Below, piece by piece: positions 1,595-64,000 of a stretch of DNA of 64,000 bases. Each line of letters opens with the position of its first letter. Positions within the stretch are counted from its first letter, which is position 1. Made by a program: the position numbers and the translations under genes. Source of the stretch: a virus; IMG/VR virus record IMGVR_UViG_3300007094_000006, positions 32,797 through 96,796 of that record; one strand, 5' to 3'. Below the pieces are notes generated by a model, which was not told the DNA's origin, did no database searches, and was given only the letters and a program-made list of their open reading frames with translations.

Positions 1595-2577
1595 AAAAAC
1601 TGTACTACCCATACCAAAATCAATAAAACTCAGTCGTATCAAGGGTTTTAACGATTTAAACTTTAAAAAATACCATTTTAAAATCAATAAAACTCAGTCG
1701 TAGTATGGCTTAGACCCGTTTGTACTATGTAGTAGGGGGGATAACTTTATTTTTTTTGTCCCTACCCATTTGAATCATTGCATTGGGGGTTTAAACACAG
1801 GCATTCCTTTCTGTTCCTTTTGAGGTGGACAGACACTACAGACGCCAAAAACAGCCTTTTCTTGCACTTCGGAGCGGATAATGATACTTTTACCATTAAA
1901 CGAACTTTTAATGGCTAAAAATAGCTAAAAATGGGCAAAATGGCTAAAAATGCCTAAATGGGTAAATATGGGCTAAATATTTAAAATATATATTTAATTT
2001 TTTGATAGGTTGATTTGTGAATACCCTAGGAATAAAGTATCCTAGTATCCTATCCCCCATTCTATTTTTTTTTCGCTATGTATAGCATAGCATGGGAATA
2101 AACAAAATGTCAAGTGGTAGTGGAAAAATATTTTAGGGGGGTGGGGGTAGGCGGGAGTAAGCAAGCAAAAAGTATTAGAGCTTTTGAACTGCGATGATTC
2201 AAATAGGTAGAGACAAAAAAAAAGTTACCCCCCCCCTACTACATAGTACAAACGGGTCTAAGCCATAGCCTGATTGAGTTTTATTGATTTTAAAATGGTG
2301 TTTTTTATACTCTAAAATGTTAAAACCCTTGATATGATTGAGTTTTATTGATTTTGGAATGAGTAGTACAGTTTTTTAGTCCCAAAAATGCGATGATTCA
2401 AATGGGTAGATACAAAAAAAATAAAGTTACCCCCCCTACTACATAGTACAAACGGGTCAAAGCTATACCCTGATTGAGTTTTATTGATTTTAAAATGGTG
2501 TTTTTTAAATCTTAAAACGCTAAAACCCTTGATATGATTGAGTTTTATTGATTTTGGTATAAGTAGTACAGTTTTTT
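1595..2577. repeat. inverted-arm repeat locus 1: arm(+) ~1595-1784, core(-) ~1785-2189, arms(-) ~2190-2375 and ~2388-2577
   Basis: ~190-bp unit (tgtactacc...aaaatcaataaaactc x2...tttgtactatgtagtagggggg...tttgaatcatcgc) and core near-identical to loci at 27.5 and 46 kb. Confidence 0.95.
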
Positions 2578-2673
2578 GATAATCAAAAAAGTAGTTCAAA
2601 TTAGAGATTCTAAAGTTGCAGTATTTTTCGCTCAAATTAAGATTGACTTTCCACTTAAAGATTTGATTTAATT

Positions 2674-3156
2674 ATGCCCGAAACTTTGCCTAAGACTTCT
2701 ATAATTGCCCAATTTTTAGATGAAGGGGAACCATTAGGTACTTTAATGCTAGATGGGACAGAATATAAAATCACAGCCCCTGAAGATTTATCTGAAGCCG
2801 AATATATTGAATATTTTCAAGCTAGAGCAGAAGCTATGGATGTTTTGCTTAGTGTTTACGGTGTTGAAAATGAAGATGGAGAACTAATACTTGAAAAAAG
2901 TGTAGGTGCTTCGGATTCAGTAAAAAAAGCTAAATTAGAAGCTTTAATGTATAAACCTGCCCGTCGAATGGTAGAAGCATTATTAGGAGTACCGGCTGGG
3001 ACATTTAAACGAAAAAGAAGTAAAACAGTGATGTCATTATACAATCATTGTCAACAACTTTTAGAAGAAAAACAAACTGTCGAACCAGTCATCAAAAAAG
3101 AAGGTGTAGAGGAAGATTTAGAAGTCCCTTTGGGTGGGAAAATCGAGCAAGAGTAG
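2674..3156 (+). CDS. tail assembly chaperone (gpG-like)
   Basis: acidic 160 aa; slippery heptamer C CCT TTG at 3126-3132 with an overlapping -1 frame ORF. Confidence 0.65.
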   Translation: MPETLPKTSIIAQFLDEGEPLGTLMLDGTEYKITAPEDLSEAEYIEYFQARAEAMDVLLSVYGVENEDGELILEKSVGASDSVKKAKLEALMYKPARRMVEALLGVPAGTFKRKRSKTVMSLYNHCQQLLEEKQTVEPVIKKEGVEEDLEVPLGGKIEQE

Positions 3157-3467
3157 TGAGATATGTTAACACTCTTATCGATTGTCTACCAATATTTTAT
3201 AGTTTTGGTATTTCTAGATTAGAACTTTTAAAAATGCGCCATTGGGAAGTTCTAGAAATCATATCAGGACACTATAAACATCGTGCTAGATTAGTGCTTG
3301 ATTTGACCGATGCTGTAGCTTTAGGGGCTGGATGGGGTGATGCAGAATCTAAAGAACAAATGCAACGTAATTTAGTGGATAAAGCTGGATTCCCTCGTCG
3401 TAAAACGAAAGTACCTAAAAAGTTCACAGGAAAATCTTGGACTTCTGATTTGATGACTATGGTTTAA
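3126..3467 (+). CDS. -1 frameshift extension of the tail chaperone (gpT-like)
   Basis: ORF 3048-3467 is in the -1 frame relative to 2674-3156, has no obvious ATG/RBS of its own near its 5' end, and is open across the X XXY YYZ heptamer. Confidence 0.6.
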   Translation, partial: PFGWENRARVVRYVNTLIDCLPIFYSFGISRLELLKMRHWEVLEIISGHYKHRARLVLDLTDAVALGAGWGDAESKEQMQRNLVDKAGFPRRKTKVPKKFTGKSWTSDLMTMV

Positions 3468-3552
3468 AGTTCAAGCCCAGCCCTTTTAGAACGGTCAATA
3501 TGCCAATGATGTTCACCCTTTGAAAACAAATAGCCAAATTAAGCAAAATGGA

Positions 3553-4095
3553 ATGTCTAAACTAATTAAATTAACGAATCCTGAAGAAGTTCCTGAGTTA
3601 ATAAAAGAGGCTATTTGTTATTATAGGGGTTGTTTTCCTCAATATTCAGATGCTGAAATAGCCAGACGAGTGAATAAAAATCTTGATTGTATATCTATAG
3701 ACGAAAAACTTGTTTTAGAAATTTTAGAATTAGAGCCAGACCGTCTTTTTAAACATAAATTTGGCGGTGCAGAATCTGTAAAATTGGGGATACTTTTAGG
3801 GGAACTAAAATTTTCAACGTTACACTCTAGAGTCAAATTTTTAACCGATATAATGATAATGGGTAAAGAAGGATATGAAGAACAAAGAGCCACTAACAGA
3901 GGTGATATTGTAACTTTAACAGCTAAAAACCTAAATGCCTCATTAGAAGCACATAAACAATTAGGAATGATTCTAGAAAAAGTTGAAGCTCTGACTGAAC
4001 GAGAGGAAGAAGTCTTTTTAGAAGTTGATGTTTACCCACAATTTTTACCCACATCGAACCTAGCTTCTAATGAAGAAGACGAAGTTTTGAACTAA
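3553..4095 (+). CDS. hypothetical protein, possibly terminase small subunit
   Basis: HTH-like N-terminus (YSDAEIARRVN), helical body, acidic tail; lies upstream of the terminase large subunit. Confidence 0.4.
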   Translation: MSKLIKLTNPEEVPELIKEAICYYRGCFPQYSDAEIARRVNKNLDCISIDEKLVLEILELEPDRLFKHKFGGAESVKLGILLGELKFSTLHSRVKFLTDIMIMGKEGYEEQRATNRGDIVTLTAKNLNASLEAHKQLGMILEKVEALTEREEEVFLEVDVYPQFLPTSNLASNEEDEVLN

Positions 4096-4144
4096 AACAC
4101 ACCTCGCCCATTTCAAGATTAATCCTTCTATTAAAACCTACCAA

Positions 4145-8571: not shown

Positions 8572-8817
8572 ATGAAGTTTAGGAAAAAACCCCTTGTTAT
8601 TGAAGCAGTTCAGTTTATAGGCAACGATGCAGAATGTTTGGCATTCTGTCCTATTGCGAAAGACCCCGTTGATAATAAGGACAACCTGATAATCCCTACA
8701 CTTGAAGGAGAAATGCGTGTTTCATTTGGCGATTGGATTATCAAGGGGGTGAACGGCGAGTTCTATCCGTGCAAGCCTGACATCTTTGAAAAGACTTATG
8801 ACAAAGTTAAAGTCTAA
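8572..8817 (+). CDS. small conserved phage protein (RKKPxVIEAVQF / [20 protein letters not shown] family)
   Basis: recognisable widespread phage family motif; flanked by a ~65-bp direct repeat. Confidence 0.85.
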
Positions 8818-8883
8818 CTCTTTATTTGCTGGTTTAATTTAATCCTAAAATCGCCCAACACTCTAGTAGCGTTGGGTTTTTAA

Positions 8884-10809
8884 ATGAAATATCCAAAAAA
8901 AGTAGCATTTGAAATTTTAGAATCTGTCCATCCTGAAGTTGAACAAAATCAGGAACTTTTTGACATGACTGACGACTTGTTAGGGGGTGGTCCAAGATTA
9001 AAAGATAATTTAGAAAAATATTTAGTTAAAAAACCAGATGAAGATGCTGAAATTTACAAATACCGTAAAAAACTCTTTACTTATGTTCCTATTTTAGGGC
9101 AATGTTTAGCTCAATTATTGAATAGGATGACTGCCTCTAATCATACTATTAATGGTTTTTCAGAAAGTCCTAAACACAAAGAATTTTGGTTTAAATTTAG
9201 AGAATCTGTTAACGGTAATCATCAAAAAGAAAAAGCTTTTATTAAAGATGTTTTCTTTAAACTTTTAAAATATGGAAAAGTATACGCAGTAATAGAAAAA
9301 GATTATTCAGACATTTTACCTACTAATAAAAAAGAAGAAGAAGAATTAGGTTTAATGCCTTATATTGCGTTGTATGACCCTCGTTCTGTTATCCACTATC
9401 AAGAACTTGATGGAAAGCTAAAATGGATAAAAATTAGAGAATTAGAAACCAATTATAGCCCTGTAGGTGAAACGCAATATTTTCTGAAATGGACATTTAT
9501 CGACGATAGTTTTATTACTAGCTATCGTTGTCCAATGATTTATAGTAATACAGGAAAACTTGAACCCGATGTCCAATCGGAGTTTAATTCAAGTTCTTAT
9601 ATGATTCCTTTGTATAAACAAGTTGCCCATGAAAGAGGCACTATTCCTGTTGTAAATATTAAAATTCCTGAAAATCTTTGGGTCACTAAAGAAGCTATAT
9701 TTTTAGTTTTGGAACATATTAGGGTTCATAATAATTTGACATATACCGCAAATGTTGCTGGTCAAATTCAAAGATTATTTACTCCTATGTCTGAATCCGC
9801 AGATAAAATGGTTGACTTGGAAGAAGCCAGAGGTCAAACAGGAAACCATCGAGTATTAATTGGACAAGGATTTACTTTTAATGAAACTACTGGTACTGCC
9901 ATTAATACCATTGCTGGCTATCTAGGAAAACTAGAAAGTAGAATTAAAGATTTAATTTTTTCTAATGGTATTTCTGCTGGTGATGATAGACCAATGCAAG
10001 AATCTGGCGTAGCTAAGAGTATGGACTTTATTAGTCAAGAACAAGCTCTTGCCGCTTACGGTGAACAATTATTGTTTTTTCTTGAAGAATGTTATAAATT
10101 AGTTGCTTTAACTCAGGGCTTTAGTAAAGAGGAAATTTCTCAAATTTCAGTTTCTGGTCTTAATGAATTTGTTTTAGATACTGTTGACACAAAAGTAAAT
10201 AGAATTTCCCTTTTAGAGGCTTTAGACACTCCTATTTCCAATACTGCTATGCGCCTAGTGGTTGAAGACCTACAACGAGCTTTAACTCCTAACGCTTCAA
10301 TTCTTGAACAAGAAATTATCCATAACGAAACTTTACAAGACTTCTCAGATGTCAACCATCCTAAACTTGGTTTAGAAGAACTTACGTCTTTAGTATTGAA
10401 CCAAATCGTTTCTGTTTCTACTGCTCAAGAATTATTAGGCTTTGACCCTTCAGTAGAATGGGACAGAATTAAAGAACAAATGCTTGAAATGCAAGCTATT
10501 CAAAACCCTGAAAATAAAAACTCACCTACAACTGAAACTGAAGAAACTGAAAAACCTGAAGAACCTGAAGAACCTGAAGAACCTGAAGAAAATGTTGACC
10601 CTCTTGAAACTGTGGTAAATCTAGCTAATGCTTTAGCTACTCTTTCTAATGATAAAACTGAAGATATTCTTGCTTCTGTTAATTTTAATGAAAATATTTC
10701 ACCTGACGAAGCAAAACCAATAATTATGATATTAGCTGAAAAATTAGGTAAATTAATTGACGCTACGCCAGAAGAAGTTTTAGAGGGGGTTGGTTATGAG
10801 GAGGATTAG
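8884..10809 (+). CDS. portal protein
   Basis: follows terL; YLVKKPDEDAEIYKYRKK and ESGVAKSMD motifs of siphophage portals; acidic EEP-repeat C-terminal extension. Confidence 0.8.
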   Translation: MKYPKKVAFEILESVHPEVEQNQELFDMTDDLLGGGPRLKDNLEKYLVKKPDEDAEIYKYRKKLFTYVPILGQCLAQLLNRMTASNHTINGFSESPKHKEFWFKFRESVNGNHQKEKAFIKDVFFKLLKYGKVYAVIEKDYSDILPTNKKEEEELGLMPYIALYDPRSVIHYQELDGKLKWIKIRELETNYSPVGETQYFLKWTFIDDSFITSYRCPMIYSNTGKLEPDVQSEFNSSSYMIPLYKQVAHERGTIPVVNIKIPENLWVTKEAIFLVLEHIRVHNNLTYTANVAGQIQRLFTPMSESADKMVDLEEARGQTGNHRVLIGQGFTFNETTGTAINTIAGYLGKLESRIKDLIFSNGISAGDDRPMQESGVAKSMDFISQEQALAAYGEQLLFFLEECYKLVALTQGFSKEEISQISVSGLNEFVLDTVDTKVNRISLLEALDTPISNTAMRLVVEDLQRALTPNASILEQEIIHNETLQDFSDVNHPKLGLEELTSLVLNQIVSVSTAQELLGFDPSVEWDRIKEQMLEMQAIQNPENKNSPTTETEETEKPEEPEEPEEPEENVDPLETVVNLANALATLSNDKTEDILASVNFNENISPDEAKPIIMILAEKLGKLIDATPEEVLEGVGYEED

Positions 10810-14626: not shown

Positions 14627-15259
14627 ATGGATATTAATTTTCAAAATAAACTACCAGTGGCAATTTCTATTGGTGAGGATGTGGCTAAAAAAACCTTTAG
14701 TTTTGTTCAGCTATCTCGCCTACAGTCTAGTGAAAATATTTTGATGTTTCCTTTACTGGAATCCCAAAATTTAGAGGGTGGTTTCAAAAATATTCTTGAG
14801 CAAGCACGGCAAAAGGTAAACAATGCACTCAATCTAAATTGTCAATTTTCCATATCGGATTTAAAAGACAGAATAACGCAGTCACTATCTAATCAAGGTT
14901 GGAACGAGGTTGATTGGGCAAATTTTTGGGTTAAAGAATTTTCGAGAGCTTTGGGGTATAATCAGTGGTTGAATCGGTCTTGTTATTCATTCTCTATTTT
15001 GGATAAATACCTTAAACAAAAAAACTCGAAGATTATTATTTTGATAGATGGACTAGAAAATATTTTTCCGGATTTAGCCCATGATAACCTTCAACAAACA
15101 GCTTTGAAAGCATTGATAGAAAATTTGCCAAATAAATTGTCCGAAATTCGGCAATCTAATCTAGGATTGATCGTTTTTCTGCATAGAGATTCCATGAGAA
15201 AAACAATTAGGCAAAACTCAGGACAATTTGAAAGCTTGTACAGTGAATACCTTTTTTAG
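14627..15259 (+). CDS. fragment-like P-loop ATPase-related protein (Walker B-like IIILIDGLE, no Walker A)
   Basis: resembles an internal segment of large cyanobacterial ATPases (recognition by recall). Confidence 0.5.
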   Translation: MDINFQNKLPVAISIGEDVAKKTFSFVQLSRLQSSENILMFPLLESQNLEGGFKNILEQARQKVNNALNLNCQFSISDLKDRITQSLSNQGWNEVDWANFWVKEFSRALGYNQWLNRSCYSFSILDKYLKQKNSKIIILIDGLENIFPDLAHDNLQQTALKALIENLPNKLSEIRQSNLGLIVFLHRDSMRKTIRQNSGQFESLYSEYLF

Positions 15260-18908: not shown

Positions 18909-20858
18909 ATGCCCAGAAAAAAGGCATCATCTAACAACGTGGACAAATTTAACCACCCAGAGTATAATAGCCAAAATCACTTAAAAGATGTCGAAGATAC
19001 AGAAGATTTAGGGGATAACTATCTCAGTGACTACGATAAATATGCCGAAGGTATTCGGGTATTAAGTTCTTTAGGTTATACTTTCATTCCCCATTTTAAC
19101 CCAGACTGTCTTGGACACAGGGTTTATGTCGATACGCCTTTCACCCTGATTTCTAAAGATGGTAAAACAATTACTGATGTTAACCCTCCAAAAAATTTAA
19201 AATGGCGTAAAAGAATTAGCCTTGGTGATGATTTACCTTTATTGTCTAGTGCTTATTGTGCTATTCGTTCTCAATGTGGTAAATCAGTTGGTGATTTTTG
19301 GAAACCTATGGTAGAGTTAGGTGGTGATAAACGTAAAGCCATTTTTAATATGGCATCCCTTTTTCTTGATGCTGAAAAGTTTAATTCTCGTCAAAAGTCT
19401 GATAATCTAATCAGTCTTACAGGGGGCGATGGTGGTTTATATGTTGTCCCCCAAAAGTCTTGGTTTGACTCACGTTTTGATTCCATTTCTATTGACGACC
19501 TTTTATACCTTTTTCCCTCTGCTGAATCTAAAATGCTTCAGTACATCATTGGGCGGATTTTTGTCGGGCGTGGAGGTACAAAATCCATTGAGGGTATTGT
19601 CGTTGAACATAAAGCCCGTTATATGGGTATAATTACAGGCGAACCTCGTTTAGGCAAATCAACCTTTTTAGACGCTATATCCGAAGCTATTCAATCTTTA
19701 GGCTTTGAAACTACTACCATTTCTGAGTCTAGCGGTCGTTTTGGTTGGGCTGAAATTGCCAGCAGTCATTTTACGTTTATCGATGACTTAACCAAAGAAA
19801 CCCAACGTCGTATTATTTCTTCTGGCAAAATTAAACAGATTGTTTCTAACAATGTTCTCAAAACTGAAAATAAGGGTGAAAGTGCTGTTAACACCCAATC
19901 CCAGACCGTAATTATTGCCAGTAGCAATTCTTTCAATCTTCGTGATTTCTATAACGCTGACTCTGGTATTCAAGACAGAATAAAAATCTTAGAAATTAAA
20001 ACTAAGGCTGAACTTTGTAAAGACAAATCTTTACCTTATCAGGTTGACGAAACTTGTCCTTTTAACCTTCATCGACATTGGCAATTTATTGCTGATAAGA
20101 ACAATGTTTCTTATGAGTCTCTCATTTATTGGTTGATTTACCTTTGTGTTCAAGAATTTTTGTCTGTTGTGGGCTATACTGAGGAAATTCCTCTTTTTCA
20201 ACCTGAGAAATTTCCAGATATTGATGAAGAGACTTATAAACATCTTATGCGCTCTATAGCTCCTACTTTGAAAAAGACTAAGCCTTGTTCTCTTTATAAG
20301 ACTGTCGAAGACTTAGAACGCAATTTCCGAATCCAAACTATGACTAATTCTACTCAAGCTTTAGTTTACTTTTGGCGATTTTGTCTCATTCTTTTCACTT
20401 ATAACGTCGAAAAGAAACCTTCTTTACCACCTCCTGTTTTTGACGTTAATTTTCTTATTCACTTTTTAAAGGCTCATCAAGCTTTTTATTCCCCAGAATT
20501 TGAACCCTTACGCACTTTTCTAGAGGCTGATTATCTCTCTAATAACTCTCCTAAATGGCATCCTTATTCCGTGTTTTTAGAGGTTAACGGCTCTTGTATC
20601 TCTCAAGCTATTTTGAAATGTCTTGAGGCTGAAAATCTTTATTACCCTCCCGCTAAAATGGTCGAAATTTGTTTAAACTTTTTTACTTCTTCTAAAGGGT
20701 TTGAACTTCGTAAAGATTTACCTATCATTATGGAATCTTATTCCTTAGCTTCTGCTCATGATTCCTTTTTTGTTGAATTAACTTCTCATCTTTTTTATGA
20801 ACAACCAGCCCTCTTTGAATTAGTTCAAAAGGCTAAAAGACAAGTCCAATCTCGATAG
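18909..20858 (+). CDS. SF3/D5-like replicative helicase (primase-associated)
   Basis: GEPRLGKST Walker A, FIDDL Walker B, IIASSN motif C, DSGIQDR. Confidence 0.75.
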   Translation: MPRKKASSNNVDKFNHPEYNSQNHLKDVEDTEDLGDNYLSDYDKYAEGIRVLSSLGYTFIPHFNPDCLGHRVYVDTPFTLISKDGKTITDVNPPKNLKWRKRISLGDDLPLLSSAYCAIRSQCGKSVGDFWKPMVELGGDKRKAIFNMASLFLDAEKFNSRQKSDNLISLTGGDGGLYVVPQKSWFDSRFDSISIDDLLYLFPSAESKMLQYIIGRIFVGRGGTKSIEGIVVEHKARYMGIITGEPRLGKSTFLDAISEAIQSLGFETTTISESSGRFGWAEIASSHFTFIDDLTKETQRRIISSGKIKQIVSNNVLKTENKGESAVNTQSQTVIIASSNSFNLRDFYNADSGIQDRIKILEIKTKAELCKDKSLPYQVDETCPFNLHRHWQFIADKNNVSYESLIYWLIYLCVQEFLSVVGYTEEIPLFQPEKFPDIDEETYKHLMRSIAPTLKKTKPCSLYKTVEDLERNFRIQTMTNSTQALVYFWRFCLILFTYNVEKKPSLPPPVFDVNFLIHFLKAHQAFYSPEFEPLRTFLEADYLSNNSPKWHPYSVFLEVNGSCISQAILKCLEAENLYYPPAKMVEICLNFFTSSKGFELRKDLPIIMESYSLASAHDSFFVELTSHLFYEQPALFELVQKAKRQVQSR

Positions 20859-23070: not shown

Positions 23071-23144
23071 CGTGGGATAGAGCAGTCTGGTAGCTCATCA
23101 GCCTCATAAGCTGAAGGTCGTAGGTTCAAATCCTGCTCCCGCCA
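23071..23144 (+). tRNA. tRNA-Met (CAT), initiator-like
   Basis: cloverleaf: CGTGGGA/TCCCGCC acceptor with C1xC72, D-arm GAGC/GCTC, anticodon arm TCAGC-CTCATAA-GCTGA, TTCAAAT T-loop; CCA not encoded. Confidence 0.93.
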
Positions 23145-24708: not shown

Positions 24709-24816
24709 TTCTTTTTTCCCTTTTCTTTTAATTTTAACTTGAGCGACAAAAAACAGGGTTGACATTTTTTTTCTTTGTGCTATGATAGCTTTGTAGTCTT
24801 AGCAATCAAGAAAAAA

Positions 24817-25536
24817 ATGCCTAATCTCACGATTTTAGATTTTGAATCCTCTAACATCCGATTTGAAAACCGTGATGGACGAGTTTGGGTGAGTCTAACT
24901 GATATGGCAAACGCTAGTGGAAAACTCATTGGTCATTGGAACCGGCTAGACTCCACAAAGGAATTTCTGTCAGCCTTAGAGTCCGATATCCATCAACGGA
25001 TATCGGAAACCATAAAAGGTGGTGTCCCTTCAAAACAAGGAACTTGGGCTATCGAAGAAGTTGCCATCGAATTTGCTGGCTGGTGTTCTGTTCATTTCAA
25101 AATTTGGATGCTACGCCAGATTAAAACTTTGATGACTCAAGGCTATGTTGCATTGCCGCAAACTCAACAGCCTAAACTTCCCGCTCACAAACTCGCTGAA
25201 GAAATTACGGAATCTATTTTCCAAATTCAAAACAAAATTTCTGAAAACAATCCCCGATTGGCACAATTTCTCATCGATTTAGCAATTTCCGAAGTTATGC
25301 CCGCAGGTAACAGCTTAACAGGTGTTAAACTAAAAGGGGTCGCCGAAATTGCAGAATCTTTGGGTTTGCCAGTTAATTTTCAAAACCGTTCTTCTTTAGG
25401 CAAGTTTGTTAAAAAAACTTGTGGACATCTTGCTCAACAAGAAGAACGCTTGGTTAATGGACAGCAACGATTTGTTGCTTGCTACCCAGAGGATGAACCT
25501 GAAGTTATTCAAGCTATCAGAAATTTTTTTAGCTAG
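24817..25536 (+). CDS. KilA-N domain protein (antirepressor-like) 1
   Basis: WVSLTDMA, QGTWAIEEVAIEFAGWCS KilA-N motifs. Confidence 0.88.
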   Translation: MPNLTILDFESSNIRFENRDGRVWVSLTDMANASGKLIGHWNRLDSTKEFLSALESDIHQRISETIKGGVPSKQGTWAIEEVAIEFAGWCSVHFKIWMLRQIKTLMTQGYVALPQTQQPKLPAHKLAEEITESIFQIQNKISENNPRLAQFLIDLAISEVMPAGNSLTGVKLKGVAEIAESLGLPVNFQNRSSLGKFVKKTCGHLAQQEERLVNGQQRFVACYPEDEPEVIQAIRNFFS

Positions 25537-27331: not shown

Positions 27332-27529
27332 TGTCACTGAATTAACGACACTCAGTAGAGTCCAAAAAGGTATGGTTTTGAAAAAGGGAGTAACTATTAG
27401 TTAAACCCTTGGTGGAAACCAAAAAAGGCATGGAAAAAATCGTTCCCTTGACTGGAAAGCAACGGAAGCCAAAAAACAGTCTCATAGTCTTCCAATGAAA
27501 TGTTGGAAGATTTTTTTAGGTCTTAACCA

Positions 27530-28307
27530 TGTACTACCTATTCCAAAATCAATAAAACCCAATCATATCAAAGGTTTTAGCGTTTTAATCTTTAAAAAAC
27601 ACCATTTTAAAATCAATAAAACTCAGTCGTAGTATAGCTTTGACCCATTTGTACTATGTAGTAGGGGGGGGGGTAACTTTATTTTTTTTTTGTCTCTACC
27701 CATTTGAATCATCGCCGTTTAACGAAAAAAAAGTCCCACCTCACCACCCCACACCCCAAAAATATTTTTCCACTACCACTTGACATTTTGTTTATTTCTA
27801 TGCTATGCTATACATATAGCGAAAAAAAAAAAATAGAATGGGGGATAGGATACTAGGATACTTTAATCCTAGGGTATTCACAAATTAACCTATCAAAAAA
27901 TTAAATATATATTTTAAATATTTAGCCCATATTTACCCATTTTACCCATTTTGCCTATTTTTAGCCATTTTTAGCCATTTTTAGCCATTAAGAATCCGTT
28001 TAACGGTAAAAGTATTGTTACCCGCCCCGAAGTGCAAGGAATGGCTGTTTTTTGCCATCTGTAGTGTTTTTGTCCACCTCAAAAGAAACAGAAAGGAATG
28101 CCAGTGTTTTGAACTCCGATGCAATGATTCAAATGGGTAGTGACAAAAAAAATAAAGTTATCCCCCCTACTACATAGTACAAACAGGTCAAAGCCATACC
28201 CAGACTGAGTTTTATTGATTTTAAAATGGTGTTTTTTAAACTCTAAATCCTTAAAACCCTTGATATGATTGGGTTTTATTGATTTCCGACCAAGTAGTAC
28301 AGTTTTT
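27530..28307. repeat. inverted-arm repeat locus 2: arm(+) ~27530-27715, core(+), arm(-) ~28118-28307
   Basis: same arm and core sequences as loci 1 and 3. Confidence 0.95.
27780..27809 (+). promoter_or_regulatory. sigma70-type promoter in the repeat core (also ~46440 on + and ~2113 on -)
   Basis: TTGACA-18 nt-TATGCT with extended TGn; conserved in all three cores. Confidence 0.7.
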
Positions 28308-28389
28308 AGTGGCTCAAATAGTTCACCTTTCCCCTCAACCATGCTAAAATAGATGCTAGACGCAAAACAAAATACAGACCCGATTCCCG

Positions 28390-28934: not shown

Positions 28935-28986
28935 TGGTTTAGATTTTTGAAGACTACCCTATATATGTCCTAAATGCCTTTATTAT

Positions 28987-30381: not shown

Positions 30382-30606
30382 GCTAGTAGGTTTAGCGGTA
30401 GTGTCAAAACTTTGAGGAAGTTTAAACCCTAGACCGCTAGTAGAATCAGATACTGCTAACCCTGGTTCCATTAAATTGATTAAATCTCTCAAAGCTGGAG
30501 CATTATTTCCATTAACAAGTCTAGTATCGTAAGCAAATAAATTAGACCGAAAACCCATATAATAATTACCGACATTATCTGTGTTTTGTAAGTTTGGTGT
30601 AGTCAT
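30382..30606 (-). pseudogene. 5' part of a small gene interrupted by the IS
   Basis: MTTPNLQ...TAKPTS runs into the IS right end and resumes in frame past the left end as (A)IIKAFRTYIG*. Confidence 0.55.
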
Positions 30607-30639
30607 TAGGGAATCCTGTAAAATAAAGAAATGTTTTGA

Positions 30640-30817
30640 GAACAATAAATAAAACTACCATCAGAAGCACTGGTAGATGGTCGCCATGTCGTATTTATTA
30701 ATGAATTTTGTAAAGAACAATAAATAAAACTACCATCAGAAGCACTGGTAGATGGTCGCCATGTCGTATTTATTAATGAATTTTGTAAAGAACAATAAAC
30801 AAAACTGCCATCAGAAG
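30640..30817. repeat. 75-bp tandem repeat, about 2.4 copies
   Basis: gaacaataaataaaactaccatcagaag starts at 30640, 30715 and 30790; gives 25-aa repeats in minus ORF 30606-30851. Confidence 0.9.
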
Positions 30818-36302: not shown

Positions 36303-39275
36303 ATGTCTAGAGTAAATCCTGTAGGGATTCCTTTGATTTCTGAATCTTTAAGGCTACAATTATTTGGCGATTTAGAAAACCACCCAAGCAAAACGGCTCG
36401 TGAAGAAGCCAAAAGACAGTTACAGAGCTTCAATCTGAGTAGCTCTAACATTCCTACTCCTCCTATTATTGAATTTGATTTACCCCCTCTTGAAGGTGAA
36501 GACCTTGAAAAACATTTTCACAACATTGCTATTCAGCGTTCTAAACCTTATTTAGATTTAGCAGAGTCTTTAGCTCGTACCAGTATTCCACCTATTCCTT
36601 CTGAATTTATTTTCAAGTGTGGTTGGACTTGTTACCCTATGGATGGGTCTGAACCTTATTCTGTCCCTTACCCTCTGGAGATGGCTATTGTTTATGACTG
36701 TGAGGTTGCTGTTACTAGCTCTAATTACCCTGTCATGGCTTGTGCTGTTTCTTCAGTCGCTTGGTATTTTTGGGTTTCCCCCAAACTGGTTTCAAACGGT
36801 TCTGATACTCTTTGTCCTTTGGGTAAATCCGACAAATTTGTTGTTGCTCATTATATGAGTTATGATCGTGCAAGAACCTTAGAAACTTATGACCTCAAAC
36901 TCTCAGGCGTTCGTTTTTGGGATACTTTGTCTATGCACCAATGCGTCGCTGGTCTAAGTTCTAAACAACGTCCTCTTAGCATCAAACACAATAAAGCTCT
37001 TGATGACCAAGGTGAGTCTCCTTTTTATCATGATTGGCTTGAGGTTTCTAGCGGTAATTCTTTAGCCGAAACTTCTAAATTGCATTTAGGTTTTTCTATT
37101 TCCAAATCCGACCGTGATTATTTTGTTACCGGTACTCTTTTGGAAATAAAAAATCGTTTTCAGCAATTAGCTCAATACTGTGCTAATGATGTTAAAGTCA
37201 CTTTTCAACTTTATCAAGTTTTATGGTTCCGTTTTAAGGAAAAATGCCCTTCTGTTGTGACTTTTTGCGGAATGTTGCAAATGGGTACTGCTATCCTTCC
37301 TGTTACCCGTGAAAGTTGGTATGGCTATATCAATCGCTGTGAAGAGTTGTTTCATTCTGAACGCTTAAAAGTTAATTCCCATTTGCAAATGTTGGCTGAT
37401 GATGCAGTTTCTAAGTTTATTAGCGGTGAATTAGACCCTAACTCTGATCCTTGGCTTCGACATTTAGATTGGTCTATGCCTTCTTCACGGGCTAAAAAAC
37501 ATAAAGACAAACCAGAATGGTATCGTAAGCTTTTCAAGGGTGATAAACTCAACCTTACTGTTCGTTCCCAATGTACCCCCTATCTTTTACGTCTCTCTTG
37601 GATGGGTTTCCCTCTTTATCATCATAAGGAACGTAAGTGGGGTTTTCTTGCCACTCAAGGTGCTGATGTCTCTTCCAATACTACACCTTTGCTTCTTGAA
37701 AACTTTTATTCTCCCGATGGTGGTCTTTCTTATGTCGATACTCTGTTTTATCCCTTACCTCACAAAGCCGGTGAAAATTCCAATGTTGGTTCGCCTTTGT
37801 CTAAAGATTATCTTTCGGAAATGGAGGCAGGTATTCTTGATTCTGACTTCCCTGAAGCTAAATTAGCCCTCAAATCTGCTATTTCTTGTGCTTATTGGGT
37901 TTCTGTTCAAGACCGTGTAAAAAATCAATTTGTTGTTCTGTCTTCTGACAATTGCACTGGTTTTATTTGTCCTCAATTAATTACTGCTGGTACTGTCACT
38001 GGTCGTGCTGTTGAAAACACTTGGCTTACTGCCGCTAATCCTCGTCCCAATCGTATTGGTAGTGAAATTAAAACTACTGTTCGTATGCCTCAAGGCTATG
38101 TCCAGATTGGGGCTGATGTGGACAGTTAACGCAATGGCTGTCGTTAAATTCCTTTAATTGCGGGAAATTCCTTAGAGCCTAGATAACTACAACGTGACTT
38201 GAAAAGGTGAGCGTGAACGTTTTAAAAATATCTAGGATTGGACAATCCGCCGCTAAGACCCTCACCTAATCTAGAAGGGTAAAGTTCACAGACTATCCGT
38301 AAGGAGTAGGGCTTAAGCAAGCTCGAAATAGGGAAAAATGGGAAACCATTTAAGATATAGTCGAATCTGTAGGGAAACTTACAGAGAATAGGCGGAAGCG
38401 GTCTATTCGTAATACAAATGCAAGAGTTATGGATTTCTGACTTATTAGCAGATGCTTATGTTGGCATTATTGGTGGTACGCCCTCCTCTTTTCAAACACT
38501 TGTTGGCTCTAAAGAAGATGGCACTGACCCTCACTCCATGACTGCTTCTTTATTAGGTATCAGTCGTGATAATGCTAAAACTGTCGTCTATAGCCGTCGA
38601 TATTCTGCTGGTCTTAAATCGATGATTAATTATATGCGGGAGTTCCGTAAAACTTTGACTTCTGCTGAGGCTAAACAGCTTGCTTCTGATATGTTTGCCA
38701 AAACAAAAGGTAAAAAAATTGAAGGACGTTGGCGTTTAGGTACTGAGTCCGTTATGTTCAACGAACTTGAACGTATTGCCACATCTAGCGACCCTCGCAC
38801 TCCTACCTTGAAACGTACTATGAGTGATGCCATTCATCCACGTTTTACTGGACACAAAGATTATCTAACTAGCAAAATTAATTTTTGTGTTCAAAGCTCC
38901 GGTGTTGATTTTTTACACATCTGTCTTTCTGGTGTTGATTATCTTTGTTCCAAATATGACATTGATGCTCGACTTTGTATTACCATTCATGATGAATACC
39001 GATACATTGTTCTTGCTAAAGATTCTGCTCGTTTTTGTTTAGCTTTGCAAATCGCTCACCTTTGGACTAGAGCTTATATCTCCTACTCTGTAGGACTTTA
39101 TGATTTGCCTGCTTCTGTTGCTTGGTTTTCGGGTGTCGATATAGACTTCACTATTCGTAAGTCCCCCGACAAACCCGCTATCACCCCTTCTCAACCTTTA
39201 GGTCTTCCTTTAGGGCGAGTCACTACCATTCAAGAGATTCTTGAGGTTACTAAGGGTTCTCTTTTGAAATCTTAG
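36303..39275 (+). CDS. mitochondrial-type DNA polymerase gamma (family A); exons 36303-38126 and 38421-39275, spliced 892 aa
   Basis: RVNPVGI N-terminus, Exo I DCE, Exo II SYDRAR, Exo III YCANDV, AGTVTGRAVENTWLTA, motif A GADVDS|QELWI, motif B RDNAK..Y..RY, motif C IHDEYRY. Confidence 0.93.
38127..38420 (+). ncRNA. group I self-splicing intron (294 nt, no ORF)
   Basis: exon ends in U; P1 gacagU pairs with Gctgtc; P aattgcgggaa, Q aatccgccgc, R gttcacagacta, S aagatatagtc; terminal G; removal restores motif A in frame. Confidence 0.95.
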
Positions 39276-39617: not shown

Positions 39618-40036
39618 TCTTCAAAAACTTCAGTTAAAATCCATGAAAGCCAAACACTAAATATTGCTTGTATACTACTCATTATCGTAAAATATGTGGC
39701 AAATACGCTTAACGTAGGAATTGGTAATACTCTTAACAGATTGGTTAAACTTATTGCTATTCCGTAAACTCTCGCCACTCCTAACACTATACTGCTTCCT
39801 TCTAATGTAAACTTAATGGTTTGTTTTTGAGCTTCTCCTCTTATAAAATATTTCAAAATAGGTATGCTAAAATTTGTCACAGACGATAATAATAGCAACA
39901 ATGTATATTGAAATTGCTCGTCTGTTAATCCCCCAACTACTCTCACCAAAGTTGTAGTCCAAAATATAAACCCTATGGCTATAAAGTATTCTTTTCCTAA
40001 TTTTTGCTTAATCTCTAGTGTCTGTTTTGGGTTCAC
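39614..40036 (-). CDS. membrane protein (3-4 TM segments)
   Basis: hydrophobic segments. Confidence 0.6.
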   Translation of the reverse strand: MNPKQTLEIKQKLGKEYFIAIGFIFWTTTLVRVVGGLTDEQFQYTLLLLLSSVTNFSIPILKYFIRGEAQKQTIKFTLEGSSIVLGVARVYGIAISLTNLLRVLPIPTLSVFATYFTIMSSIQAIFSVWLSWILTEVFED

Positions 40037-40640
40037 TTATGGCTTTTCCTAAATCTGCTAAAAACCTTTCTAAATACTCCTTAACATTTTGGGCGGAGTC
40101 ACTTTCTAATTGGGTAAATTCTTTGCTTGGAGGTGGTAAAAATGGGTTTCCTGAAGCTATTTTAACGGTTGCTATTAAGTAAAGTTTATAATTATCCTTA
40201 CTTCCCGCTACAAATAAAACCATTCTCACTTTTTCCCACCCTAAAAAACTTATTTGTCTTTTATTATAACCTAAATCCACTAATATTTTGTCATTATTTG
40301 ATTTTAAAATTGTTGACTCTGGATAATTTGTAGAAATGTATGTTATAATATTTTCTAACAGTATTTCTTGGTTCTCTTTATTTAATCCTATTCCTTTCGG
40401 CAGTTTTAACGTTGTACTTTTGGTTATATGCCCATCTAATAAATAAACTAAATTTTCTGTATCCTTTGTAAGTGTTATGTTATCTTTTGTTTTTACATAT
40501 TTTTGAAGGATTACTTTTTCTTTTATATCTATTTTTTCTTCTCCAAAAATTTGAAAATAAATTACTAATATATTTACGCTTATATTTAACACATAAATTA
40601 ATAACTTTTCTCTTACTAACCGTTTTAAAAATCTAATCAT
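40008..40640 (-). CDS. membrane-anchored hypothetical protein
   Basis: N-terminal TM segment; overlaps the downstream gene. Confidence 0.65.
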   Translation of the reverse strand: MIRFLKRLVREKLLIYVLNISVNILVIYFQIFGEEKIDIKEKVILQKYVKTKDNITLTKDTENLVYLLDGHITKSTTLKLPKGIGLNKENQEILLENIITYISTNYPESTILKSNNDKILVDLGYNKRQISFLGWEKVRMVLFVAGSKDNYKLYLIATVKIASGNPFLPPPSKEFTQLESDSAQNVKEYLERFLADLGKAISEPKTDTRD

Positions 40641-45875: not shown

Positions 45876-45977
45876 CCGTGTGAACCGTTCTTTTAGTCCC
45901 CAAAAGGGGGCTTTTTTGTGGAAATGCTAAAAAGTGCTTTAACGCAAATCGGCATTTTTAGGGGGGTCTGCTCTATT

Positions 45978-47189
45978 CAAAAAACTGTACTACCTATACC
46001 AAAATCAATAAAACTCAATCATATCAAGGGTTTTGACGTTTTAGACTTTAAAAAACACCATTTTAAAATTAATAAAACTCAGTCTGGGTATAGCTTTGAC
46101 CCGTTTGTACTATGTGGTAGGGGGGATAACTTTATTTTTTTTGTCGCTACCCATTTGAATCATCGCATTGGGGGTTTAAAAACTGTACTACCTATACCAA
46201 AATCAATAAAACTCAGTCGTATCAAGGGTTTTAACGTTTTAAGCTTTTAAAAACACCATTTTAAAATCAATAAAACTCAGTCAGGGTATGGCTTTGACCT
46301 GTTTGTACTATGTAGTAGGGGGGGATAACTTTATTTTTTTTTGTCTTTACCCACTTGAATCATCGCATTGAAAACGTGAACTACTTTTTGATTTGCTCCC
46401 ACCTACCCTTACCCCCCAAAAATATTTTTCCACTACCACTTGACATTTTGTTTATTCCTATGTTATGCTATACACATAGCAAGAATAGAATGGAGGATAG
46501 GATACTAGGATAATTTATTCCTAGGGTATTCACAAATCAACCTATCAAAAATTAAATCTATATTTTAAATATTTAGCCTATATTTACCCATTTAGCCATT
46601 TTTTGCCCCTTAGACCAAAGGAATGGCTGTTTTTCGGTGTCTGTAGTGTATGTCCACCTCAAGTTGAACAATGCTAAAAGCCATTGTTGGAAGAAGCCTA
46701 TAGCTCACCCTGTGAGAGCAAAAAACGGTAGTTCACATCGTTGAGCCTTCCAAATGCTTCTATCTGCTCACTCTAGCGGGTATATGTTTTTCACGGGTGA
46801 ACTGCGATGATTCAAATGGGTAGAGACAAAAAAAATAAAGTTATCCCCCCCCACTACATAGTACAAACAGGTCAAAGCCATACTACGACTGAGTTTTATT
46901 GATTTTAAAATGGTGTTTTTTAAAGTCAAAAACGTTAAAACCCCTGATATGATTGGGTTTTATTGATTTTAGAATAGGTAGTACAGGGTTAAGTGTTCAA
47001 ATGCTATGATTCAAATGGGTAGGGACAAAAAAAATAAAGTTACCCCCCCCACTACATAGTACAAACGGGTCAAAGCTATACTACGACTGAGTTTTATTGA
47101 TTTTAAAATGATGTTTTTTAAAGCTTAAAACGCTAAAACCTTTGATATGATTGAGTTTTATTGATTTTGGAATAGGTAGTACAGTTTTT
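45978..47189. repeat. inverted-arm repeat locus 3: arms(+) ~45978 and ~46178, core(+), arms(-) ~46803 and ~47001
   Basis: two plus two arms around the same core. Confidence 0.95.
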
Positions 47190-47542
47190 AACCCCAAATT
47201 GATTTTTCGATTTCAAAAAAAATTTTTTAGGACAAAAAGGAGGCACTCCCCTTTTTAGCCTAAAAGAGGGGTATGGGGTATTTCTCCTGCATAAACTTTG
47301 AACTTTGTCAAGTCCTAGTGTGACACTTTATAAACTGGCACATTTGGACTTGACATTTTACTTTTTTGTGATAGTGTGACACTTTTTAAACTGGCACATT
47401 TGGACTTGACATTTTGACCTTTTTTGGCAGTGTGACACTTTTTAAACTGGCACATTTGGACTTGACATTTAAACCTTTTTGTGGTAGATGTGCCAATTAA
47501 TAAACTGGCACATTACCTGTTGACATTTTTAGGCTTTTGTGG

Positions 47543-62202: not shown

Positions 62203-62395
62203 AGTGGTCTAAGTATTTATACCTATAGTATGCCCGTTCTGTCCCCCTTTTGGAGTGGTCTAAGTATTTTTACTCATAGTATGCCTGTACTAACCCCCTT
62301 TTGGAGTGGTCTAAGTATTTTTACTCATAGTATGCCTGTACTAACCCCTCTTTGCAGTGGTCTAAGTATTTATACTCATAGTCTCCCTGTACTAT
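62203..62395. repeat. 51-bp tandem repeat x4 containing AGTATGCCTGTACT (LexA-box-like)
   Basis: units start at 62203, 62254, 62305, 62356; degenerate copies at ~62560 and ~62759. Confidence 0.85.
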
Positions 62396-62536
62396 CCTTT
62401 TTTCGGCTATCCCCTCGCATGGTGCAAACTTCATTTTTGCCCCTGCATTTATTTTTAACTTTCAGCCTTTTCTACACATGGCGCAAACTTCATTTTCGCC
62501 CCTGCATTTCTTTTGGTTGCATTAGGTTGTGATTTG

Positions 62537-62920
62537 TGTCACAGGTTTTTGGGCTTTTTGTGGTCTAGGTATTTATACTCATGGCATCCCTGTCCTGCCC
62601 TCCCCTTGAAGACTATAGTATTCACGGGTTTTTGGACTTTTTGTTTCAATCCAGTTACGATTGAGTTTCGATTGTATTACATTTGTGTTTCAATCGTGTT
62701 ACATTTGTGTTTCGATTGTATTTCGATTGGTTCACACAGGTTTTTGGACTTTGTGTTTGTGGTCTAGGTATTTATACTCATGGCATCCCTGTCTCTCCCT
62801 ATCCGCCTTCCTGTGTACACTATGGTATTCACAAGTTTTTGGTCTTTTTGTTTCAATCCTGTTACGATTGTGTTACATTTGTATTTCATTTGTGTTACAG
62901 GGTTTTTGGACTTTGTGTGT
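62537..62920. repeat. ~199-bp duplication containing 11-bp-period GT(G/A)TT(A/T)C repeats
   Basis: periodic blocks at ~62643-62730 and ~62850-62900. Confidence 0.75.
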
Positions 62921-62958
62921 GTGACCGCCCCGCCTCCTTGTCTCTTCTATGTCTTCTT

Positions 62959-63244
62959 ATTGAGAATGATTCTCATTATCATTTTTTGTCCTCTTATTGA
63001 GAATGATTCTCATTATCCTTTTTCTGTCTTCTTATTGAGAATGATTCTCATTATCATTTTTTGTCCTCTTATTGAGAATGGTTCTCATTATCCTTTTTCT
63101 GTTATCTTATTGAGAATGATTCTCAATATCCTTTTTCTGTTATCTTATTGAAAATGATTCTCAATATCCTTTTTCTGTTATCTTATTGAAAATGATTCTC
63201 AATATCCTTTTTCTGTTATCTTATTGAAAATGATAATCATTCTC
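62959..63244. promoter_or_regulatory. tandem array of 8 Fur-box-like palindromes (37-38 bp period)
   Basis: TGAGAATGATTCTCA 7-1-7 palindrome; copies at 62959, 62996, 63034, 63071, 63109, 63147, 63185, 63223. Confidence 0.8.
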
Positions 63245-63543
63245 CTTTTTCTCATAATCTTCTCATAATCTTCTCATAATGGTTTTTGGTGAAATTTACC
63301 AATTATGGTGAGTCTGGTCAGCATTGGAGTTTCTCTATGCTGAATACGGTTTGCATTTGGTTTTCTCTATGCTAAGATTGCTAAATCTTCAACATTTAAT
63401 GCTTTTTCGCTCCTATCGAAAAATTTTGAGTCGAAAACCTGTCCGTTTTAGTGGTGGTTAATGAATGGTCTGGCTAAGTTCACCCAGATTTTTCCCAGTC
63501 TAGTACAATTTGTCGACGGTTTGCACCTTTAGTGACACCCAGA

Positions 63544-64000
63544 CTGTACTACTTTTAAAAAATCAATAAAACTCAGTCATATCAAGGGTTTTAATTTTTT
63601 GGTACTAATAAAATGCCATTAAAAAATCAATAAAACCCAGTCACTGTATGGGTTGGGTCTGTTTTGTACTATGTAGTGGGGGGGATAACTTTATTTTTTT
63701 TATCCACCCCTACTTGAATCGTCGCATTAAAAAAACCTCTAAAAAAGCTTTTCGTACCTTTTGCAAGCATTTGGAAGCTACAAGTACCTTTAAGTACCTT
63801 GAAATATTTCCTGCCATATTTTAACTGTTTTTAGATTTTTGAAATGTAACACCCAAGGTGTACTACTTTTAAAAAATCAATAAAACTCAATCATATCAAG
63901 GGTTTTAATTTTTTGACACTATTAAAACACCTTAAAAAATCAATAAAACCCAGTCACCGTATAGGTTAGGTCTGTTTTGTACTATGTAGTAGGGGGGGGG
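63544..64000 (+). repeat. repeat locus 4: two diverged arms(+) at ~63544-63728 and ~63859 to window end
   Basis: same arm motifs with variant spacers; truncated by the window. Confidence 0.9.

Follow-up and report, generated by a model that had tools for sequence, protein, structure and literature searches.

Baculovirus homologous regions (hrs), which have been proposed as origins and as protein-bound enhancers, are dispersed intergenic loci with repeat units in variable number, inverted symmetry and lineage-specific sequence, situated at gene-block borders and tied to genome rearrangement. The loci described here, found in a 64-kb window (the whole stretch of DNA analyzed) from a relative of the Microcystis phage Mic1, are alike in these respects. 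However, hrs are tandem arrays of ~70-bp units that each contain a 30-bp palindrome, without any unique core, whereas in the phage a unique core with a promoter is enclosed by ~200-bp arms in a single large inverted pair, and the host is bacterial. We draw the hr analogy for architecture only. The T4 origins oriF and oriG and the primary origin of T7 share with these cores a promoter from which transcription enters an AT-rich unwinding element after a few tens of nucleotides, and T4 also has several origins, but they lack flanking inverted arrays of 200–400 bp and are not sequence paralogues of one another; R-loop priming would be hypothetical here. In P4 (ori/crr), SV40, papillomavirus and herpesvirus (oriS/oriL) origins, short repeated motifs, partly inverted, flank an AT-rich tract as they do here, P4 requires a second distant repeat region (crr), and herpesviruses have two or three paralogous origins. 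Their motif sequences are unrelated, though, and the phage arms are far longer. The P4 initiator-helicase (alpha) is of the SF3 class, which includes origin-binding initiators, and the 'primase' of our phage likewise has an SF3 (DUF5906) helicase domain, although no binding domain was identified in this protein.

The window is part of a 96,796-bp circular-map genome (~95% identity to Mic1), whose record ends are joined at 100% identity by an independent metagenome contig (L197). Judged by their sequence, all four of its loci are copies of the same non-coding 'foldback' module, which is specific to the lineage of Mic1-like Microcystis siphophages. In this previously undescribed type, ~200-bp arms point inwards around a core with a promoter; the Mic1 papers searched do not describe it. 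The modules take up 5% of the genome and occupy the four borders between its gene blocks, with spacings of 25.9, 18.5 and 17.4 kb in the window and 34 kb from locus 4, which wraps around the record ends, to locus 1. Repeat finding recovered direct-repeat families at ~1.6–2.6, 27.5–28.3, 46.0–47.2 and 63.5–64.0 kb and inverted pairs of 190–362 nt with 88–93% complementarity, and one arm compared with the whole genome by BLAST gave E-values from 1e-104 to 1e-26. The family of ~190-bp arms that a sequence-only reading had placed at ~2, ~28, ~46.5 and ~64 kb was recovered with all its elements in those positions. The window has 11 arms (3+2+4+2, with the final one truncated where the window stops) and the genome 13 (1+2, 1+1, 2+2 and 2+2), because locus 4 runs across the record ends. 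Every module has one or two arms per side, all directed inwards. An arm carries two AAAATCAATAAAACYCA boxes ~64 bp apart, an outer CTGTACTAC and an inner TTTGTACTATGTAGT, a run of at least seven G and then ATAACTTTA-T8, with GTACTA half-sites among its repeated motifs; all 24 copies of AATCAATAAAAC and all 13 of TTGTACTATGT in the genome lie within modules. RNA folding of arms gave z-scores of +0.4 and +0.6, and arms are therefore not structured RNAs.

Locus 1 (window coordinates throughout, unless stated) begins with a single inward arm on the plus strand (L1a, 1592–1792; 211 bits with the nhmmer arm profile, also found by BLAST and alignment), followed by a core on the minus strand (1793–2180) and a tandem pair of minus-strand arms (2181–2578; L1b 2181–2383, L1c 2382–2578; BLAST, alignment and nhmmer). 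Its promoter (TTGACA-18-TATGCT, minus strand, 2113 to 2084) is directed leftwards through the hairpin, the AT tract and TTTAGCCAT-type repeats to the gp18 homologue (1548 to 1231). As had been claimed, this core runs opposite to those of loci 2 and 3, but the locus does not split the tail tube gene (492–1130, plus) from the chaperone-like gp18 homologue (1231–1548, minus), as had also been claimed, since both lie to its left. At locus 2, the plus-strand left arm (L2a, 27520–27724) and minus-strand right arm (L2b, 28111–28309), both found by BLAST and nhmmer, enclose a plus-strand core (27725–28110), and the terminator of the upstream operon (27486–27512) lies just beyond L2a. This core contains a C-rich patch, a promoter (27780–27809), a hairpin element (27844–27894; GATAGG / ATA-CTAGGAT..ATCCTAG-GG-TAT / CCTATC), an AT tract (~27895–27925), TTTA(G/C)CCAT repeats of 9–10 bp (~27922–27989) and a second small hairpin (ACCATTAA..TTTAACGGT). 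Locus 3 has tandem pairs on both sides (plus-strand arms 45979–46378, divided as 45979–46176 and 46172–46378, from repeat finding, BLAST and nhmmer; minus-strand arms 46792–47194, divided as 46792–46991 and 46992–47194, from BLAST and nhmmer) and a terminator upstream (45895–45912). Its plus-strand core (46379–46791; promoter 46440–46469) has the same hairpin/AT/repeat block as locus 2 and ~150 nt of additional, locus-specific sequence. Locus 4 is of a divergent type, whose first left arm (63533–63732, plus; BLAST and nhmmer) has ~80% identity to the other arms and a repeat unit of ~314 bp; the second (63849–64000, plus) is cut in its G-run by the window and record end. The remainder lies at genome positions 1–1393, with the core at 59–874 (promoter ~548) and minus-strand right arms at 875–1079 and 1190–1393 (BLAST and nhmmer).

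All core elements claimed by the earlier reading, from the C-rich patch, promoter, hairpin and AT tract to the TTTA(G/C)CCAT repeats of loci 1–3, were found. The predicted promoter is a near-consensus sigma70 type (TTGACA-18-TATGCT with a TG extension), like the early promoters of the phage, and its predicted transcript would start with the hairpin and continue through AACCTATC-A(n), the alternating-AT tract and, in loci 1–3, the phased 9–10-bp repeats. Twelve distinct cores hardly differ in their promoter, their hairpin, AACCTATC-A(n) and their AT tract, and the same elements are recognizable in the locus-4 type, which is ~20% diverged. Three of the 10 hairpin pairs show two-sided compensatory changes and none is broken. 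Taken together, a promoter that reads into a probably unwinding-prone AT tract, short phased repeats and flanking motif arrays make up what reads as an origin-like grammar.

The modules are a family confined to Mic1-like phage DNA. More than 15 independent metagenome or virome contigs carry them, as does the genome of the Mic1 isolate, which argues against an assembly artefact, and a search of ~185,000 prokaryotic species genomes, host genomes included, found no copies; the 22 loose-pattern matches in prokaryotic genomes were all chance, without an arm, and none was cyanobacterial. Phage A-HIS1 encodes a Pol gamma and has the closest other match (25% identity) to the primase-helicase of this phage, and its genome has no such modules; they are therefore not general to phages with these replication genes. 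Across the relatives, the main four sites and their core orientations are kept, arm copies per side vary from one to two, and extra or partial modules are present at two further sites. A full extra module lies upstream of a KilA-N gene in three contigs (L004, L153 and L219); the same site holds a solo arm in Mic1 (19,551–19,742) and is empty in this genome. An additional arm is present at the other site, at the edge of contig L013.

Strand composition switches sharply at locus 4 and sets it apart. The global minima of both cumulative skews lie within it (GC: genome 96,754, window 63,958; AT: genome 96,636, window 63,840), at a resolution of ~1 kb at best, and the maxima (48,755 and 51,845) lie on the opposite side of the circle, although at third codon positions alone the maximum is a broad plateau at 16–48 kb and not a clean V. 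When third-codon-position GC skew was regressed on both, the effect lay with genome half (t = 7.2) and not with gene orientation (t = −0.9), and the skew of minority-strand genes agrees with their genome half. In Mic1, the GC minimum (52,597) falls at the distal edge of a tnpB insertion, 1.3 kb away from the orthologue of locus 4. No inflection was found at loci 1–3, and the opposite skew-switch zone has neither iterons nor repeats. The sequence-only reading had proposed a multi-origin system, to be checked by skew inflections at the loci; a coherent family of origin-like modules and an inflection at locus 4 stand, but four equal origins are not supported. The sign of the skew cannot separate an origin from a terminus for an unknown replisome, and early and late gene blocks also diverge where the skew switches at locus 4. 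An array of palindromic boxes (62,959–63,244; 8 x 38 bp, each a 7-1-7 palindrome), present in all relatives, adjoins locus 4 and may itself be the actual origin or serve as a regulatory site. By the strand rule used for tnpB, the orientation of the two insertions, together with that of all three core promoters of loci 1–3, would fit forks heading to locus 4, in what is a small sample. Both insertions lie <0.7 kb from a module, and IS200/IS605 elements target stalled forks and single-stranded DNA (PMC5027513).

Our preferred reading, held tentatively, is that the modules are most likely cis-acting replication/recombination elements. The arms would be double-stranded site arrays for putative binding by a phage or host protein (no arm-binding protein was identified among the phage gene products checked). 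An initiator or architectural protein would load onto them, and the AT tract may be opened by transcription of the core, in the manner of T4 oriF/oriG or T7. The candidate for the principal bidirectional origin is locus 4, and its paralogues at loci 1–3 may be auxiliary origins, enhancers or fork-interacting sites.

A somewhat unlikely alternative is that the modules are transcription cassettes or boundary elements, in which a core promoter for the host RNA polymerase and a long structured leader drive the gene block past the far arm (gp18, gp93 and gp48, and gp16 at the extra site), while a phage regulator times or insulates this transcription through the arms as its operator arrays, and position and repetition account for the skew coincidence and the inversion as side effects. 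The core may be a plain mRNA promoter because it faces a co-oriented gene at four of five sites (in this genome, Mic1 and the L004 extra site), and it shares its CTTGACATTT context with six early-region promoters. The G-U pairs of the hairpin, found on the promoter-sense strand only, indicate an RNA-level element; the modules sit exactly at temporal-block borders, and neighbouring operons end in their own terminators just beyond loci 2 and 3. In Mic1, gp18 and gp93 are both middle-phase (M1), and gp18, just downstream of a core promoter, is highly expressed (log2 TPM 14.5 at 4 h); its M1 timing is that of the replication genes, which also suits the preferred reading. However, gp93 reads zero at 0.5 h despite its upstream consensus sigma70 promoter, the leaders would span 530–960 nt through the far arm(s), and the locus 3 promoter has no gene to drive and faces the 3' end of an early operon that converges on it. 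Strictly inverted arms, an AT tract with phased repeats and two-sided arm conservation are also left unexplained.

We consider it doubtful that the modules are selfish, non-autonomous foldback elements (MITE-like) that spread in the Mic1-like lineage and affect the phage only through rearrangements. Foldback transposons and MITEs have long terminal inverted repeats of tandem subunits in variable number and a small non-coding center, and they promote inversions, as the modules appear to do; the outer module ends read TG...CA, arms on opposite sides of the same module are often sisters in sequence, and presence or absence differs among relatives at the KilA-N site and the L013 edge. Nevertheless, no target-site duplications were seen at loci 1–3 or the L004 extra module, where the flanks only extend the inverted repeat as AAAAACTGTAC, and the polymorphic site does not resolve into cleanly filled and empty versions. 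Together with the lack of copies in the prokaryotic genomes searched, this leaves two expectations of a MITE, host copies and target-site duplications, without a match. The syntenic positions and core orientations of the four main sites are conserved, with the locus-4 type an old paralogue kept in place, and the conservation of promoter and hairpin goes beyond the needs of a passive passenger. No cognate transposase is known in the phage: the proteins annotated as 'transposases' are TnpB and a small one, the homologue of which in this genome has weak zinc-ribbon matches only.

Still less probable are centromere-like or genome-organizing arrays, bound by a ParB-like or nucleoid-type protein for plasmid-prophage partition or for compaction and packaging. 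The four dispersed inverted-repeat loci resemble the layout of the phage-plasmid N15, which has four scattered centromere sites, and the 12-mer box has 24 exclusive copies. ParA and ParB homologues are annotated in Mic1, for which turbid plaques are reported (PMC7156551). On the other hand, the homologues here have no Pfam match at E <= 0.01, the parS proposed by the Mic1 authors is a different palindrome, the array of 8 x 38 bp next to locus 4 is the better centromere- or iteron-like candidate, and this reading offers no explanation for a core in which promoter, hairpin and AT tract are conserved. Invertible promoter switches (invertons), with cores that flip between the arms to drive genes on the left or right, are highly improbable: inverted repeats around a promoter are the defining inverton layout and core orientation differs between loci, but each site shows one orientation relative to its flanks across all independent assemblies examined, the annotation contains no invertase or recombinase gene, and the arms are ten times the typical inverton repeat length.

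As replication/recombination elements, loci 1–3 would also act as recombination substrates, and any pair of modules could recombine and invert the DNA in between because each has arms in both orientations. The proposal that the loci could drive inversions is borne out by the sole large rearrangement between this genome and Mic1, a 25-kb block inversion (35.4–60.3 kb of this genome) with breakpoints within loci 1 and 2. Mic1 gene order was derived from 12 Velvet contigs joined by PCR, and none of the metagenome contigs checked has Mic1-type junctions, which leaves room for the inversion to be a minority isomer or an error of scaffolding. Replication-axis-symmetric bacterial inversions and the flip-flop isomers of chloroplasts and herpesviruses are similar in that inversion endpoints lie in inverted repeats, near-symmetric about the skew minimum, and strand-composition polarity is therefore kept in both arrangements; for the phage, by contrast, a single event is on record, between two genomes. 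Its endpoints are roughly equidistant from the center of locus 4 (locus 1, 34.4 kb; locus 2, 36.5 kb), and the one recorded inversion is the one that is roughly symmetric about this locus.

The window is 93-96% identical to the Microcystis siphophage Mic1 (MN013189, 92.6 kb) across most genes and represents bases 32,797-96,796 of a 96,796-bp virus record. Both ends of that record lie inside the G-run of a single repeat arm. The junction is spanned at 100% identity by L197, an independent metagenome contig, making the map circular or permuted. Based on repeat finding, BLAST, and an arm profile applied to the whole genome, the dispersed arm-and-core loci proposed in the sequence-only reading were confirmed, with 13 arms in four loci (hereafter, modules): locus 1 (window 1592-2578; arms 1+2), locus 2 (window 27520-28309; arms 1+1), locus 3 (window 45979-47194; arms 2+2), and locus 4 (window 63533 to the window end, continuing at genome 1-1393; arms 2+2). 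The modules divide four gene blocks, comprising tail and capsid genes (A), PhoH-MazG-TerL-portal-primase-KilA-N (B), helicase, Pol gamma, and NrdA (C), and early genes (D), in the order A-L1-B-L2-C-L3-D-L4, where L1-L4 are the loci. The finding is real, and the modules are undescribed in the literature searched here: papers on Mic1 describe early-region promoter repeats and a heptamer repeat, not these modules, and the Mic1 gene annotation places nothing within them. Dispersed, paralogous palindromic cis-elements at block borders and inversion breakpoints are familiar in large eukaryotic DNA viruses; in tailed phages they have, as far as we know, not been described. The only Rfam matches in the window lie outside the modules and are a group I intron (71 bits; 38081-38384) between two Pol gamma ORFs and a tRNA (23071-23144).

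Our leading reading, held tentatively and at somewhat less than even confidence, is that the modules are a cis-acting replication and recombination family, with locus 4 as the foremost candidate for an origin and loci 1-3 as paralogues whose origin function is putative. Over the whole genome, the cumulative skew minima both fall within locus 4 (GC: 96,754; AT: 96,636), with maxima at 48,755 (GC) and 51,845 (AT). The GC minimum of Mic1 (52,597) and the orthologous module are 1.3 kb apart, with an inserted tnpB gene whose far edge coincides with the minimum; the GC maximum of Mic1 is at the orthologous opposite point, the skew pattern being preserved through the inversion that distinguishes the two genomes. 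When third-codon-position GC (GC3) skew was regressed on genome half (t = 7.2) and gene orientation (t = -0.9), the skew followed the former, as it does in minority-strand genes. Coding strands are usually purine-loaded; contrary to this, the plus-strand genes encoding primase, RNA ligase, helicase, Pol gamma, and NrdA (window 16000-46000, genome 48.7-78.7 kb) have C-/T-rich coding strands, with GC3 skew down to -0.5. With the analysis restricted to third positions, the minimum is still at the D/A boundary (95,827), and the maximum becomes a broad plateau. The polarity is of the replication type and switches sharply once, at or beside locus 4; the orientation-independent skew shows that such polarity is readable from a phage genome. 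Four equivalent origins are not supported, since loci 1-3 show no skew inflection; origin-like repeats were absent at the opposite skew switch (window 15-20 kb).

The usual sign rule, by which the leading strand is G-rich, and the orientation of most genes would make locus 4 the origin rather than the terminus. Against this assignment, the core promoters of loci 1, 2, and 3 are all directed at locus 4, as are two tnpB insertions, and the skew itself separates neither origin from terminus nor locus 4 from an adjoining palindrome array. This array, located 0.3-1 kb beside locus 4, consists of eight tandem 37-38-bp repeats (window 62959-63244), each with a TGAGAATGATTCTCA-type palindrome, and it is variable but present in all relatives, which carry 2-5 such boxes in the same place (Mic1 sequence L015 at ~8580-9300, and contigs L012, L072, L079, and L157). 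The array could be the real site instead, as an alternative origin, a centromere, or a regulator site. In either genome arrangement, each of the locus 1-3 core promoters aims at locus 4 along the half circle to which it belongs. The orientation of IS200/IS605 elements serves as a caveat only, and not as an indicator of fork direction, because there are just two elements and their strand assignment is tentative.

The arms point inward at every locus, with one or two per side (2-4 per locus here, variable among relatives). From outside to inside, each arm begins with CTGTACTAC, followed by the box AAAATCAATAAAACYCA and, after ~45 nt, a second copy of the same box; the inner part contains TTTGTACTATGTAGT (GTACTA and its inverted copy), a run of at least seven Gs, ATAACTTTA-T8, and CCCATTTGAATCATCGCAT. 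The repeated boxes are AAAATCAATAAAAC and GTACTA, and whole-genome counts showed that AATCAATAAAAC (n = 24) and TTGTACTATGT (n = 13) are exclusive to the modules, which make up 5% of the genome. Locus 4 has a distinct arm type (~80% identity to the other arms, 314-bp repeat unit) that is held at the same position in Mic1 and other relatives. Within one module, the left arm and the right arm are often each other's sister sequence, suggesting that arms are homogenised inside modules. Because the arms fold no better than shuffled sequence (z = +0.4 and +0.6), they were discarded as structured RNA or single-stranded DNA elements and look like putative double-stranded binding arrays. Consensus sites for NtcA or LexA did not fit the arms by eye, and coding was rejected because the length of the G-run differs between arm copies.

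An alignment of 12 distinct cores, taken from this genome, from Mic1, and from metagenome contigs, revealed a near-invariant block that starts with AAAAATATTTTTCCACTACC, runs through CTTGACATTTTG-N-TGCTATGCT (TTGACA, 18 nt, TATGCT with a TG extension), and continues with TAGAATGGGGGATAGG, the hairpin ATA-CTAGGAT/ATCCTAG-GG-TAT, AACCTATC, an A-run, and an alternating-AT tract. The A-run and AT tract lie ~85 nt downstream of the promoter, which is thus closely followed by an unwinding element, the arrangement also seen at T4 oriF and oriG; the tract is 36-37/40 A+T and, in loci 1-3, among the AT-richest 40-bp windows of the genome. The modules also resemble baculovirus hr elements in being several intergenic loci, dispersed over the genome and built from repeated units that show dyad symmetry and vary in number. 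Beyond the AT tract, loci 1-3 contain 3-7 TTTA(G/C)CCAT units at 9-10-bp spacing and then a small ACCATTAA/TTAATGGT hairpin. These units may be iterons or, equally, phased T-tracts that give bent DNA; no initiator gene adjoins them. The locus 4 core retains the promoter, hairpin, AACCTATC, A-run, and (AT)n, with TTTAGCCAT units ~270 nt upstream of the promoter, not beside the AT tract. A DnaA-box search found a single TTTTCCAC in each of the cores of loci 1-3 and two in that of locus 4 (counts that depend on one another), and the full consensus is absent from the cores, leaving putative DnaA boxes as a weak lead. A short core ORF was rejected, as its ATG is replaced and the A-run varies in length among copies, so that the frame is not kept.

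The main competitor, which we regard as unlikely yet worth keeping in play, is that the modules are promoter cassettes, whose role would be to drive neighbouring genes. In both genomes the breakpoint-side core promoters fire away from block B, towards gp18 and gp93 (gene products of Mic1) in the sense direction, and that of locus 4 fires towards gp48; the locus 3 promoter faces a converging early operon. Mic1 RNA-seq tables assign gp18 and gp93 to the middle phase (M1), together with primase and polymerase, and show gp18 abundant from 0.5 h, a timing that fits either a leader or promoter role or transcripts made during replication. The core hairpin (14 sequences) has 10 pairs, of which three show two-sided compensatory changes and none is broken, and its G-U pairs occur on the promoter-sense strand only, which argues that it is an RNA-level element. 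Rfam covariance models at the gathering score matched no known RNA family in the modules of the window. CCTAGG occurs four times in 96.8 kb, once per core hairpin, against ~9.6 expected from base composition; within the window these sites are near 2020-2050, 27866-27875, and 46520-46530, the sequence outside modules being without the site and the modules retaining it.

A selfish foldback element, in which the modules would be mobile DNA, is a clearly improbable explanation. Like MITE and foldback elements, the modules have terminal inverted repeats (88-93% complementarity between inverted arms), and one site is polymorphic among relatives, yet not as a clean insertion. As for the two signs of a MITE named in the sequence-only reading, no target-site duplication was seen flanking loci 1-3 or the extra module of contig L004, where the flanks are themselves inverted (AAAAACTGTAC / GTACAGTTTTT), and a search for host copies with two patterns (one genome per species, exact words only, checked with the arm profile) found no arm. 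Among ~185,000 prokaryotic species, the first pattern had no match and the second, looser one had 22 chance matches, of which none is cyanobacterial or fits the arm profile. In IMG/VR, all 13 loci with the exact arm pattern are Mic1-like, and a looser two-box pattern added nine further Mic1-like metagenome contigs. A 15-mer scan of viral contigs gave mostly chance matches, the only modules among them being the followed-up loci with paired inverted matches. No comparable repeats occur in phage A-HIS1, which of the other complete phages carrying this primase is the nearest (25% identity); the repeats that it does have are limited to terminators, promoters, and AP2-endonuclease paralogues.

That the modules are organiser or centromere arrays is more doubtful still. 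In a Pfam search for arm-binding candidates, two KilA-N proteins and an SF3 helicase domain were recovered, with nothing specific tying them to the arms, and all that the early-region proteins showed was a weak zinc ribbon. No Pfam match at E <= 0.01 was obtained for the homologues of Mic1 'ParA' and 'ParB' (window 14627-15259 and 40008-40640), indicating that the published partition-system annotation rests on weak similarity.

Compared to Mic1, which has the order B-Ma-A'-Mb-D'-Mc-C'-Md (Ma-Md, modules; A'-D', counterparts of blocks A-D), this genome differs by a single inversion. Either block B (25 kb) or, to the same effect, the remaining 66 kb is inverted, and each of the two breakpoints lies within a module. 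In the two breakpoint cores, the halves nearest the promoter remain joined to the ends of block B, which places the exchange in the distal core or arms. The centre of locus 4 is 34.4 kb away from locus 1 and 36.5 kb away from locus 2, so the inversion is nearly symmetric about locus 4. Invertons, which switch a segment in place, are very hard to credit: they would need both core orientations at one site, and all assemblies show one per site (assemblies display the majority state only). The Mic1 genome was built from 12 Velvet contigs ordered by PCR, and all junction-spanning metagenome contigs have the arrangement found here; the Mic1 arrangement may reflect a true difference between lineages, isomers that coexist, or an error. 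No paper linking Mic1 with an inversion was found in the literature. For the reference Mic1 genome, the modules point to a possible problem with isomers or scaffolding; they also explain the breaks between contigs that Mic1-like genomes show at module sites.

A broader version of the replication and recombination reading, speculative, clearly improbable, and modelled on herpesviruses and baculoviruses, is that palindromic origin modules organise the Mic1-like chromosome: locus 4 and its paralogues would all fire, core transcripts would prime the Pol gamma-type polymerase, and recombination between modules would keep making inversion isomers symmetric about the main origin. To our knowledge, no replication origin has been mapped for a Pol gamma-encoding cyanophage, and none is reported in the Mic1 literature searched; the modules provide a concrete, testable candidate. 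In engineering this bloom-control phage, module sites should be kept or handled carefully.

The sequence upstream of the first KilA-N gene (window 24745-25180 vs L004 10388-11984) is a variation hot spot. Some relatives have a full module there, Mic1 has a solo arm, and this genome has no module; relatives with the full module also have a different KilA-N N-terminus. In one contig, an arm at the contig start marks yet another site. Beside its solo arm, Mic1 has an array of its own (L014 19750-20500), absent from this genome, of about seven ~100-bp tandem units, each combining a GTGTTGCCATTTTGGCAACAC-type hairpin with a conserved segment of 65 nt. Relative to Mic1, a 1.9-kb insertion (window 28983-30900) lies 0.7 kb from locus 2 and bears a tnpB gene (29332-30363; Pfam OrfB_IS605 and Cas12f1-like TNB). 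Mic1's own tnpB (gp49) abuts the locus 4 orthologue and takes the place of one arm, so both genomes have IS200/IS605-family insertions beside modules.
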